Part shown: in pieces, positions 27,273-29,018 of the stretch
Layout of the letters: each line of letters starts with the position of its first letter
Numbering within the stretch: the stretch's first letter is position 1
Assembly: GCA_013112535.1 (NCBI GenBank)
Contig: JABFGI010000001.1
Location: 581,243-645,242 of the forward strand
Direction of reading: 5' to 3'
From: Pseudomonadota bacterium
Lineage (GTDB): Bacteria; Pseudomonadota; Gammaproteobacteria; Eutrophobiales; Eutrophobiaceae
Length of the DNA: 64,000 nt
Program-made: the position numbers and the translations under genes
Notes under the pieces: generated by a model
What the model was told of the DNA's origin: nothing
What the model saw: only the letters and a program-made list of their open reading frames with translations
Database searches by the model: none

Positions 27273-27304
27273 GGGGTCATATCTTGAATCTTGAATTTAC
27301 TCAC
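27273..27304. repeat. IR copy R1 (GGGGTCATATCTTGAATCTTGAATTTACTCAC), a solo copy with 2 mismatches to the core
   Basis: Member of the 6-copy family GGGTCAGGTCTTGAATCTTGAATT. Confidence 0.7.
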
Positions 27305-27999
27305 GCCGCATCCCTCCATTCATTATTTAAACTTCCTTCATTTAAGTTCACATCACTAAACGTATCCGCAGGCACCTGAAAGTTAAACGCACGATCTGCA
27401 CGTGAAACTTGATCGTCAATATCATTTGTTACGACAGGTGCAAGATTGACATTACCCACATTCAAATTGAAGTCGAGCGACACTGATTGATTAGCACTAT
27501 CAGTAGCGGTAACGACAATATCAAGAATATCACTGTCAGTAACAGCAGGCGTACCACTAAATGTCAATGTATTAGCATCAAACGTTAACCACGAAGGTAA
27601 TTCACTGCCATCAGACAACGTTGCGTTGATATCAAGCAAATCCAGATCTTCATCAATAAAACTATCAGCAGCTAATTGGTAGCTAAACGACTGATCACTC
27701 AGGATGACTTGATCAATTGCACTATCATTTAAGACGGGTTCAAAGTTAGGGTTATTTAAAATTCCAGAAGGAAATTGTATCGTTTCTATAAAACCCTCTT
27801 TCGTATAATAATTAGTGATACGTACTTGTCCGCTTGCATCAGGAATACCAGGAATATCCGAATCAACGGACACATTAAGAATTAAATCATTAGCATCACG
27901 ATGGTAGCCGTCCAACTGTGGTGTTGCTTCGTCACCACCTTCAACTGTTGTTTCAAATAAAAGTTGATCGGGTTCAGGGTCAGGCCTTACATTTGACAT
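27301..27999 (-). pseudogene. Silent partial cassette 2. It is a paralogue (about 75% nucleotide identity) of the adhesin internal segment ~21960-22690, carrying one He_PIG domain and flanks. Its N-terminus is fused to unrelated sequence.
   Basis: The protein aligns with giant-protein residues ...LLFERVIDGVDEASPQLDSYNRDGNDLVLNVS...AFNFQILSDTFADVNLNE. It has no adhesin N-terminus, RTX C-terminus or secretion signal. Confidence 0.6.
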
Positions 28000-28001
28000 T
28001 T

Positions 28002-28256
28002 TTATAAGCCTCCTTCATATGATTTTACTGCTCTACTTACCGTTGCATAGCTCACATCAAAATACTCTCCGACATTTGACAAGGTATAGTGTCCACTCAA
28101 GTAGGCTTTCGCCATGGCGACTTTACGGTTACTGTCTTTCTTTTCAAAATACGCTAGGGGTTTTATCGCTCTTTGCTTTTGCTTTCTCGGAATATCTTTT
28201 AATGACTGATCAGTCTTTGGGGTCAGGTCTTGAATCTTGAATTTACTCATAATCAT
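28002..28256 (-). pseudogene. Orphan HTH ORF whose first codons lie in IR copy R2. Its C-terminal HTH resembles the HTH tail of the Y1 transposase at 29015-29944.
   Basis: AKAYLSGHYTLSNVGEYFDVSYATVSRAVKSYE compared with YKAYKEGAHSQKEIADYFKLHYSTVSKIIKKYE. Confidence 0.4.
28219..28250. repeat. IR copy R2 (GGGGTCAGGTCTTGAATCTTGAATTTACTCAT), solo
   Basis: Exact 24-bp core. Confidence 0.7.
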
Positions 28257-28277
28257 ATTTTCCTTTTTTTATGATTG

Positions 28278-29018
28278 TTAGGCGGCTACTTGAAAATTAA
28301 ATGCACGACCAGAACGAGAGATTTGATCTGTAATCTCATTAGCGACAAAAGGTGCCAAGTTAACGTTACCGACATTCAAATTGAAATCTAACGAAACAGA
28401 TTGATTGGCACTATCCGTTGCCGTAACAAGCACATCAATAATATCACTATCGATAGCAGCCGGTGTGCCGCTAAACGTTAAGGTATCGGCATCAAATGTT
28501 AACCATGTAGGTAACGCATTACCATCAGACAACGTCGCTTGTATATCTAAAAAGTCTAATGCTTCATCAGTAAAACTATCAGCGGCAAGTTGATAACTAA
28601 ATGGCGTATCAGAAAGAATAACCTGATCTTGTGAGGTATCATTTAAGATAGGTGAAAAATTTGGGTTATTTAAAATACCTGAAGGAAACTCTATCGTTTC
28701 GATGAAACCGGTCTTCGTATAATAATTAGATACTCGTACCTGCCCTGTTGCATTCGGTATTGTACTAATATCGGAATTTACAGAAACATATAGAACTAAA
28801 TCATTGCCATCACGATTATGGCTATCGAGTTGCGGCGTTGCCTGGTTACTGCCATCTACAATGGTTTGAAATAGTAATTGATCAAAACCACCGGCATCAT
28901 TAATCGTGATATCAAAACCATCAGTAATGTCCGCACTGGGCTGAAAACGATAGATTGAATCAAACGTATTACCCGTCGTTGGGGTCTGGGTCAGGTCTTG
29001 AATCTTGAATTTATTCAT
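28278..29018 (-). pseudogene. Silent partial cassette 1. It is a paralogue (about 85% nucleotide identity, with perfect stretches over 100 bp) of the adhesin segment ~22036-22735. Its ATG and first 10 codons come from IR copy R3.
   Basis: Constant offset of 6252 bp to the adhesin gene (for example CGAGAGATTTGATCTGTAATCTCATTAGCGACAAAAGGTG at 28315 and 22063). Antisense ORFs 22153-22341 and 28405-28593 are paralogous. Confidence 0.65.
28988..29018. repeat. IR copy R3 (GGGTCAGGTCTTGAATCTTGAATTTATTCAT), the right-end IR of the transposase element; contains the tnp stop and the cassette ATG (ATGA overlap)
   Basis: Exact 24-bp core; inverted relative to R4. Confidence 0.7.

Follow-up and report, generated by a model that had tools for sequence, protein, structure and literature searches.

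Adhesin gene fragments between RAYT-type repeats upstream of a giant RTX adhesin gene in an uncultured marine proteobacterium

The T1SS-adhesin locus and its two gene fragments

The window analyzed here, a 64-kb stretch of contig JABFGI010000001.1 from the metagenome-assembled genome (MAG) GCA_013112535.1 of an uncultured marine proteobacterium, contains a type I secretion system (T1SS)-adhesin locus that is read on the minus strand, as are all features described below unless stated otherwise; coordinates are those of the window. The locus includes a giant RTX/T1SS adhesin gene, denoted G (15459-26705; 3748 amino acids), the translation of which contains RTX GGxGxD blocks and He_PIG units, together with a hlyB-type gene (34115-36256; TIGR01846, 1081 bits) and a hlyD-type gene (32181-33518; HlyD_3 match). 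RTX nonapeptide blocks, Ig-like repeats and adjoining HlyB- and HlyD-type genes, the features by which T1SS RTX giant adhesins are recognized, are all found here, and the product of G is accordingly predicted to be a giant secreted adhesin. A gap of 5.5 kb separates hlyD from G, and within this gap lie two adhesin-derived fragments, C1 (28287-28988) and C2 (27337-27969), each contained in an open reading frame (ORF) of its own (28278-29018, 246 amino acids, He_PIG match with E=5e-16, and 27301-27999, 232 amino acids, He_PIG match with E=2.4e-20, respectively) and each bracketed by terminal repeats of a RAYT-like transposase element. An earlier interpretation of this stretch from the sequence alone (hereafter, the sequence-only reading) took the fragments for silent cassettes of a gene conversion system of the pilS, vls or MgPar type.

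Both fragments span nearly the same 0.7 kb of the 11.2-kb gene, namely, the segment 21999-22721 (amino acids 1327-1569), made up of an HCBP_related-like module, a complete He_PIG unit and the opening strand of the unit that follows. The stretch 28287-28973 of C1 aligns with 22035-22721 of G at 78.6% DNA identity over 688 columns, with a constant offset of 6252 nucleotides (nt), and the homology probably starts at 28988; C2 (27337-27969) aligns with 21999-22631 at 75.9% DNA identity. At the protein level, C1 matches amino acids 1327-1557 of G and C2 matches amino acids 1359-1569. The remaining He_PIG units of G match the fragments at only 34-48% amino acid identity or through DNA scraps of 40-56 nt, so that the similarity to one segment is specific, and an equal, generic similarity to all repeats of the gene is ruled out. 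Thus, the two specific partial paralogues postulated in the sequence-only reading, the offset of C1 and the approximately 75% identity of C2 were all recovered by alignment, whereas the identity of approximately 85% ascribed to C1 applies only to its 3' 300 nt.

Pfam search with the two ORFs detected He_PIG only, plus a weak HCBP_related match in C1, and both ORFs lack the adhesin N-terminus and the RTX block, as had been claimed. The fragments do not respect domain borders: C2 begins in the middle of a domain, and C1 and C2 both stop inside the next He_PIG unit. Outside the fragments there is no homology to G, and the fragments and G have no conserved flanking blocks in common. When C1 was searched against a protein database, C1 and C2 were the sole matches at E<=1e-10; known homologues of the giant gene were likewise missed and are evidently absent from that collection, so that this search says little about relatives.

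A gene conversion patch between C1 and the adhesin gene

The similarity between C1 and G is distributed unevenly. A tract of 116 nt, in which a single mismatch at 22103 divides exact runs of 72 and 43 nt, is 99% identical between the gene (22060-22175) and C1 (28312-28427), against approximately 73% identity between C1 and G outside this patch. None of 200,000 shuffles of sites or codons produced a 116-nt tract with one mismatch or fewer (P<5e-6). The identical stretches of more than 100 bp that had been reported are, accordingly, two shorter exact runs. Distal to the patch, the remaining 25 nt of C1 hold 4 mismatches (Fisher p=0.0035); because diverged sequence borders the patch on both sides, it is better explained as an internal gene conversion tract than as the end of a duplication, and a duplication endpoint combined with allelic replacement is disfavored on the same grounds. 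Of the informative sites in the last 141 nt, 33 unite G with C1, whereas the two alternative groupings are supported by 1 and 4 sites. Over the 5' 200 nt, the informative sites slightly favor a grouping of G with C2 (30 sites vs 16 and 18), and the longest exact run shared by C2 and G is 17 nt, nothing comparable to the C1 patch. The pattern of identity indicates that one ectopic gene conversion took place between C1 and G; the proposed exchange with the expressed gene holds for C1 and does not extend to C2. The direction of conversion could not be inferred from the outgroups C2 and the full-length adhesin alleles O and T introduced below.

Given that the source is a MAG and that C1 upstream of 28341 is seen in that assembly only, the possibility has to be considered that the assembler wrongly placed strain variants of this segment upstream of G. 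However, Logan contigs from four runs (SRR7904086, SRR7904088, DRR538840 and SRR10579382) match the window at 100% identity over 28341-22146 or parts of this range. The longest of these contigs covers 28341-22146 and includes the last 55 nt of C1, the repeats, C2, a 204-amino acid ORF and 4.5 kb of the adhesin gene. Both its ends fall exactly where the shared 43- and 72-nt runs begin, which is where a de Bruijn graph containing two copies breaks. An exact look-up of C1 in public assemblies gave no match because contigs break within the shared tract. Furthermore, the junctions of the fragments to transposase ends are unique sequences, two of which are common to the related loci L010 and L014 described below. 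Because contigs of four runs agree, the two-copy structure is not an artefact of this particular assembly, and we regard mis-assembly as extremely improbable. No variation was detected among the four runs, a comparison of low power because only one run covers part of the expressed segment; moreover, two of the four probably derive from the MAG's own reactor and are accordingly weak as a population test. The sample behind SRR7904086 was a marine anammox (Scalindua) column reactor (PMC6522788), which is probably the source of the MAG itself.

Divergence of the fragments and the adhesin alleles

For comparison with G we used two full-length adhesin alleles from other organisms, O (locus L005, 815-12271) and T (locus L007, 1058-10870). 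G, C1 and C2 are about equidistant, with synonymous divergence (dS) of 0.8-1.9 and ratios of nonsynonymous to synonymous divergence (dN/dS) of 0.09-0.19, and addition of O and T produces a star (dS 0.8-3.8, dN/dS 0.05-0.19). C1 is about as close to O as it is to G (75% and 77% nucleotide identity, respectively) and is itself a mosaic: its alignment columns 285-435 are approximately 90% identical to O but only 65-73% identical to G, and its 3' end is 99% identical to G. Because G, C1, C2, O and T are roughly equidistant, the fragments appear to be pieces of other alleles rather than decayed duplicates of G. A recent local duplication followed by decay is ruled out by the dS values, by dN/dS of about 0.1 and by the lack of an excess of private amino acid changes, which number 4 in C1, 7 in C2, 7 in G, 6 in O and 13 in T.

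The full-length alleles are modular mosaics as well, and O and T begin with lipase-like N-termini to which the first ~900 amino acids of G bear no relation. The three-way comparison of G, O and T shows that amino acids 1415-1615 of G constitute the best conserved stretch across the gene. Most of the length of the fragments lies within this stretch, and their first ~30-90 amino acids lie upstream of it, in a less conserved part. Two further irregularities were observed in these alignments: T departs sharply from G and O between amino acids ~1615 and ~2660 (about 0.45-0.58 nucleotide identity), and a 95-amino acid block of G (1220-1315) has 81% nucleotide identity to O, against ~62% around it.

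The RAYT-like element and its terminal repeats

The repeats that bracket the fragments belong to element E1 (28988-29978), in which a gene for a RAYT-like Y1 transposase (29015-29944; 309 amino acids) is located between inverted 25-nt repeats (28988-29012 and 29954-29978). The protein combines a Y1_Tnp domain (Pfam, 1e-14) with a C-terminal helix-turn-helix (HTH) region and scores 79.1 bits against the NCBIfam model REP_Tyr_transpos, for which the cut-off is 80. It has more than 8000 homologues, mostly of 275-310 amino acids, several of which are named RAYT or RayT by JGI. A single RAYT copy is on record for this MAG (one cluster, one contig). Many homologues stand alone on contigs of ~1 kb, which hints at repeated flanks elsewhere. 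The 25-nt motif, AAATTCAAGATTCAAGACCTGACCC, occurs in six copies in the 64 kb, all of them within a 4.7-kb stretch (27.2-31.9 kb), compared with 0 expected. The core of the repeat is a tandem heptamer (ATTCAAG twice) and is non-palindromic.

Direct copies of the right terminal repeat of the RAYT element bracket each fragment on both sides, and these repeats are not present in G. Downstream of the RAYT gene, the order on the minus strand is right repeat, C1, transposase 3' end with repeat, diverged RAYT remnant with degenerate repeat, C2, sequence resembling the transposase 3' end with repeat, 204-amino acid ORF and G. The 3' joint of C1 (28220-28276) consists of the last ~30 nt of a transposase gene and the right terminal repeat, and the 3' joint of C2 (27274-27336) consists of ~33 nt resembling a transposase 3' end and the right terminal repeat, and carries the GGAGGG and GTG with which the repeat-encoded part of the frame of the 204-amino acid ORF opens. 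From this composition, the 3' borders of both fragments look like deletion joints into the end of the transposase gene. The diverged RAYT remnant (27977-28219) comprises the C-terminal ~70 codons, which are part of ORF 28002-28256 and produce weak HTH matches, and a degenerate right repeat (27977-27999); it abuts the 5' end of C2 and is 90% identical to a sequence in L014 (8656-8752). The last ORF before G (26705-27319; 204 amino acids) encodes a predicted membrane protein that is weakly homologous to a 208-amino acid ORF of L010 (26% amino acid identity, E=6e-9), and its stop codon overlaps the ATG of the adhesin gene.

Two other parts of the gap show that the repeats are associated with rearrangements. 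Element E2 (31632-31890), which has a second inverted pair of the 25-nt motif at its borders, is an internally deleted RAYT element with inverted ends of ~40 nt that form a REPIN-like panhandle (predicted fold of the single-stranded DNA, -41 kcal/mol, z=-7.5), and truncates an ORF6N gene. Between E2 and E1 (29985-31420) lie orf302 and fragB, the latter being the lipase-like start (~178 codons) of another giant adhesin-type gene, which the left repeat of E1 cuts off. The product of orf302 is 64% identical in amino acid sequence to that of orf278 in L010, and fragB is 75% identical to the N-terminus of the L010 giant gene; because this giant gene opens with the fragB homologue right after the orf302 homologue, the orf302-fragB pair is what is left of a second adhesin operon that the RAYT element destroyed. 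A further piece, fragA (31317-31631), is a 98% duplicate of codons 62-165 of fragB and abuts the right repeat of E2, a recent local duplication tied to a repeat end. The flanks of E1 and E2 are non-contiguous, and because the truncated ORF6N gene, the truncated fragB and the fragA/fragB duplicate all abut repeats, every repeat copy marks a rearrangement joint. In short, the locus is a recombination-prone junkyard with a joint at each repeat, a second operon cut to ~178 codons, a truncated ORF6N gene and a 0.3-kb duplicate. The idea that fragB, E1 and C1 include the two ends of one deleted O-type gene was only partly upheld: the first ~3060 amino acids of the L010 giant protein contain no C1-like segment (38% at best), and fragB is just 36% identical to the N-terminus of O.

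Several additional observations concern these neighboring features. The ORF6N-domain gene (31834-32181) is cut by E2 at about codon 105 and is intact (180-184 amino acids) in L010 and L014, and the DUF4915 gene of L010 is missing from the window. The direct duplicate of 300 nt extends over 30016-30315 and 31318-31617 (98% identity), and the upstream copy starts directly after the right repeat of E2. Small stand-alone homologues of fragB occur in contigs L008 and L009, and the pair of orf302 and fragB homologues recurs in these otherwise unrelated contigs (L009, 3107-8654, from SRR13131472; L008, 9232-10777). In L009 the pair is followed by a Y1_Tnp gene (31% amino acid identity to the RAYT of the window) and by phospholipase-like ORFs of 351 and 692 amino acids; the L008 contig stops ~100 nt past the fragB homologue. 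The presence of Y1_Tnp genes beside fragB homologues may reflect a recurrent association or a target preference of the family for this gene. Finally, a plus-strand insert of two genes (33515-34115; ORFs 33584-33868 and 33810-34094) parts hlyB from hlyD. Because the corresponding insert ORF in L014 and L015 matches Pfam BrnT_toxin, we predict a BrnT/BrnA-type toxin-antitoxin pair lodged in the T1SS operon; the insert is not present in L010.

The arrangement of the repeats brings up an active role of the transposase, whereby the Y1 enzyme would cut at direct repeats and single-stranded fragments would enter the array, from where they could seed conversion. Both fragments fit exactly between direct repeat copies, the repeat core is kept far better than its surroundings across lineages, the recent 98% duplicate also abuts a repeat, and synteny between RAYT and the adhesin locus is seen in at least five genomes. 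All these arguments are architectural, however, and the locus revealed neither a cleavage-site motif nor an excision footprint or a circular junction. Moreover, the 3' joints lie inside the end of the transposase gene rather than at the tip of the element and so resemble ordinary deletions, and the empty slots of L014 are equally well explained by recombination between direct repeats. We therefore consider capture or exchange driven by the transposase to be very unlikely.

Related loci

Pattern scans of two sequence collections produced one match per genome. The RAYT gene, encoding a protein of ~305-309 amino acids, is located downstream of hlyD in L010 (10001-10918), L014 (7667-8584) and L015 (2728-3657), and a 5'-truncated RAYT gene lies just upstream of the adhesin operon in L007 (93-455); the RAYT genes of these four loci have 75-81% nucleotide identity with that of the window. 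L014 (GCA_021774965.1; ~80% nucleotide identity) has the BrnT/BrnA insert in common with the window and the order hlyB-BrnTA-hlyD-ORF6N-RAYT-repeat-repeat-diverged RAYT remnant with degenerate repeat-orf297-giant gene. In L010 the order is hlyB-hlyD-ORF6N-DUF4915-repeat-95-nt stump-repeat-208-amino acid ORF-RAYT-orf278-giant gene. L015 contains hlyD and RAYT without an adhesin gene, and in L007, a Tara Oceans contig, the 3' part of RAYT and a repeat are directly upstream of a 169-amino acid ORF and adhesin allele T. L005, which is the same as L006, contains the end of hlyD, ~25 nt of the transposase end with a repeat, and then the 169-amino acid ORF and allele O. Judging from this synteny, the RAYT-like transposase appears to be a long-standing resident of the T1SS-adhesin locus rather than a hopping insertion sequence (IS), and the stable association with the operon may mean that RAYT acts in regulation or recombination of the locus.

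The similarity between orf302 and the 169-amino acid ORF of L005 is too weak (E=0.008) for the two to be equated. A second short repeat (CTGACCCCTTGATT...) is found upstream of the RAYT remnants in L005 (1-300) and L007 (60-100). In L005 the last ~13 codons of hlyD remain beside repeat copies at the contig end, so the T1SS of this genome may be disrupted or the assembly may be broken in the repeats.

No fragments similar to C1 or C2 were found in the corresponding stretch of L014, L005/L006 and L007, or of L015, which lacks the adhesin. L014 has nothing in the position occupied by C1 in the window, where two repeats directly adjoin instead, and L010 contains only the 95-nt C2 stump, that is, the last 17 codons of a C2-type fragment (...FSFQVPKNTFSDVNLNIGNMSNEWREAA, followed by a stop codon and the repeat). 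The C2 joint in the window (...FNFQVPADTFSDVNLNEGSLNNEWRDAA and a stop codon) is the same joint as that in L010, with NEWR(D/E)AA, the stop codon and the repeat in both. Because this joint is common to the two loci, the C2 unit would be older than the split of the window and L010 copies of the locus and would have been whittled down in L010. The region around it (window 27268-27387 vs L010 9169-9288), which includes the 3' end of C2, the junction with GGAGGG and GTG, and the repeat, is 82.5% identical over 120 nt; without the terminal repeat, the stump and junction are ~80% identical. Over the rest of the locus, synonymous sites of hlyB, hlyD and RAYT are saturated between the window and L010 (dS 1.2-2.5), and the downstream membrane proteins are ~26% identical. 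The 82.5% identity of the leader would point to constraint on the leader or to a more recent exchange.

Open frames, translational coupling and the case for cassettes

The ORFs that contain the fragments (27301-27999 and 28278-29018) are complete, start with ATG and are in the orientation of the operon, with overlapping stop and start codons, so that the copies, described as silent in the sequence-only reading, are not obviously so. The ATG of the C1 ORF lies within the end of the transposase element and overlaps the stop codon of RAYT (ATGA). For the C2 ORF, AGGAGG is found 9 nt upstream of the ATG, and the TGA shares bases with a GTG (GTGA) that opens the repeat-encoded part of the 204-amino acid ORF frame, the called ATG being 15 nt upstream. 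In L010 even the stump remains an in-frame ORF of 41 amino acids that extends from an ATG in the repeat to the same overlapping TGA. An Rfam search of 26500-32300 gave no match, and a scan for promoters and terminators did not rise above shuffled sequences (16 promoter sites vs 21.8 expected).

These overlaps raise the possibility that the fragments function as translated ORFs, either as small He_PIG proteins or as leaders that couple ribosomes into the 204-amino acid gene and the adhesin gene; in the latter version, coupling would keep the 5.5 kb that separate hlyD from the adhesin gene free of Rho polarity. Apart from the chain of overlaps, which ends with that between the 204-amino acid ORF and the adhesin ATG, this explanation draws on the in-frame L010 stump, the intact frames and the small number of private non-synonymous changes. 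The fragments do not form a clean folding unit, though, given their borders within domains, and they have no signal peptide or T1SS signal. The protein search that returned just C1 and C2 also speaks against conserved small proteins, with the uncertain sensitivity noted above. Furthermore, the relatives manage without such ORFs, and coupling accounts for open frames but not for the conservation of amino acids. A function of this kind therefore seems quite unlikely.

With the repeats, the relatives and the ORFs in hand, the programmed cassette system can be weighed, in which C1 and C2 would be maintained donors that diversify the He_PIG segment by segmental gene conversion. Silent-cassette antigenic variation is known from Neisseria pilE/pilS, Borrelia vlsE/vls, MgPar of Mycoplasma genitalium and the msp2 pseudogenes of Anaplasma. 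As in those systems, truncated copies of a surface gene are located near the expressed gene, here just upstream of it and specific to one segment, and at least one short non-reciprocal exchange has taken place, namely, the patch with C1. The slight affinity of the 5' 200 nt of G to C2 and the compatibility of the fragments with the reading frame fit such a function as well, as does the absence of relaxed constraint in two copies of the same segment despite an apparently old junction; the short direct repeats at the fragment borders recall the 17-bp repeats of Borrelia vls. Unlike in silent-cassette systems, however, there are only two copies, and they carry mostly the most conserved part of the gene, with dN/dS of 0.09-0.19, rather than a variable region. 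The border repeats are ends of a transposase element and are absent from the expressed gene, there are no conserved flanks in common, and the exact runs common to C2 and G nowhere exceed 17 nt. Relatives have not kept the arrangement, L010 alone retaining a 95-nt piece; no heterogeneity was seen across the four runs, a test of low power; and the copies are translatable ORFs within an operon and so not obviously silent. Taken together, these features make a programmed system of the pilS, vls or MgPar type, the central proposal of the sequence-only reading, unlikely. Debris of an IS-mediated duplication, which that reading mentioned as its alternative, is nearer the truth, except that the element is a single-copy RAYT and the fragments are pieces of other alleles.

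Origin of the fragments

The explanation that we somewhat favor is that C1 and C2 are relics of other adhesin alleles that were stranded in an array of RAYT/REP-type repeats and undergo sporadic gene conversion with G. Under this scenario, adhesin alleles would be mosaics traded between lineages, and truncated internal pieces of other giant-adhesin alleles would have been left between RAYT terminal repeats as fossils of earlier or foreign alleles. Either the fragments would have been excised not long ago (within less than about 0.03-0.05 substitutions per site), or gene-to-fragment conversion would have refreshed them before replacement of the expressed segment, and their frames may have stayed open partly because they are translated as coupled leader ORFs of the adhesin operon. 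Because they retain homology to G, the fragments would take part in occasional ectopic gene conversion of the RecA type with the intact gene, without forming a dedicated device for variation. This order of events and the reasons given for the open frames are inferred.

Several findings weigh against this explanation. The 236 codons of C1 and the 211 codons of C2 contain 0 stops or frameshifts, and the fragments carry just 1-2 private changes in second codon positions. A neutral fragment as old as the joint that C2 shares with L010 would be expected to have accumulated ~10 times more private non-synonymous changes. Because an old joint is thus combined with a lack of decay, an extra assumption is required. 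The body of the fragment could have been refreshed by gene-to-fragment conversion before the expressed segment was laterally replaced; alternatively, selection could act on the translationally coupled ORFs, or the joint module could have been laterally exchanged later than the surrounding genes. In addition, two fragments with random endpoints would overlap on the same segment to this extent only by a coincidence of roughly 2%. This overlap could stem from a shared ancestry of the repeat-fragment-repeat unit, or else the best conserved stretch may be more likely to survive or to serve as an anchor for recombination.

The lack of decay despite the old junction, the choice of the same segment, the brackets formed by the repeat core and the one exchange also leave room for another interpretation, whereby a domesticated RAYT and its repeats would keep a small archive of adhesin-segment alleles that are re-introduced by RecA-dependent conversion, possibly seeded by RAYT-generated single-stranded DNA. 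We view such an archive as distinctly unlikely.

Comparison with known systems and implications

For E1 and E2, the described RAYT, REP and REPIN systems are the appropriate comparison (PMC5581495, PMC3116915, PMC3337134). RAYT genes are single-copy and associated with flanking repeats (PMC5581495), and the Y1 HUH transposase of the window is likewise on record in a single copy, syntenic across relatives and located between inverted short repeats, with a non-autonomous panhandle derivative (E2) and a repeat core that is much better conserved than its flanks. Unlike typical members of the family, the 309-amino acid protein has an extra C-terminal HTH region of ~140 amino acids and falls just under the NCBIfam cut-off. 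In contrast to REP sequences, the 25-nt core is not a palindrome, and its copies within the window are clustered in one locus rather than dispersed. The trapping of gene fragments between repeats also sets the locus apart from the RAYT systems described so far.

The adhesin side of the locus has parallels of its own. In Campylobacter fetus, the sap locus encodes S-layer proteins exported by a T1SS and includes several promoterless sapA homologues that are exchanged by inversion or recombination; to our knowledge, this is the nearest precedent for a T1SS cargo gene accompanied by non-expressed homologues. As in sap, a T1SS substrate gene recombines here with nearby homologues, but the homologues are short internal fragments, without an invertible element, in contrast to the full-length homologues, conserved 5' block and invertible promoter of sap. 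Large RTX genes are also known to evolve as mosaics through homologous recombination, examples being the MARTX variants of Vibrio vulnificus rtxA1 and the lktA alleles of Mannheimia. G, O and T are modular mosaics of this kind, and C1 joins O-like and G-like patches; the known examples involve recombination of entire alleles between strains or replicons, whereas at this locus remnants of alleles have stayed in cis and have traded sequence with the resident gene. Finally, gene remnants and adjacent deletions at the ends of IS elements are a general phenomenon, and the truncated genes abutting element ends, the non-contiguous flanks and the local duplications of the window conform to it; what differs is the element, a RAYT in single copy instead of an IS that proliferates, and the nature of the remnants, which did not arise by decay of copies of the resident gene. 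Literature searches that combined RTX adhesins with gene conversion or pseudogenes revealed nothing relevant.

Remnants of genes next to the ends of mobile elements are a familiar phenomenon, as is ectopic conversion involving a gene and its fragments, and the locus described here is a new instance of them in an uncultured marine proteobacterium. Two of its features are of some interest, namely, the stable embedding of a RAYT gene between T1SS genes and the giant cargo gene in several marine genomes, and the presence of relics that have not decayed. For genome annotation, the findings imply that intact-looking He_PIG "hypothetical proteins" encoded upstream of giant adhesins may be gene relics. 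If chimeric adhesin segments were to turn up in read-level data, they would represent a new mechanism of variation for T1SS adhesins, and the archive of segment alleles, if real, would be a new route to surface variation and the first host function for RAYT.

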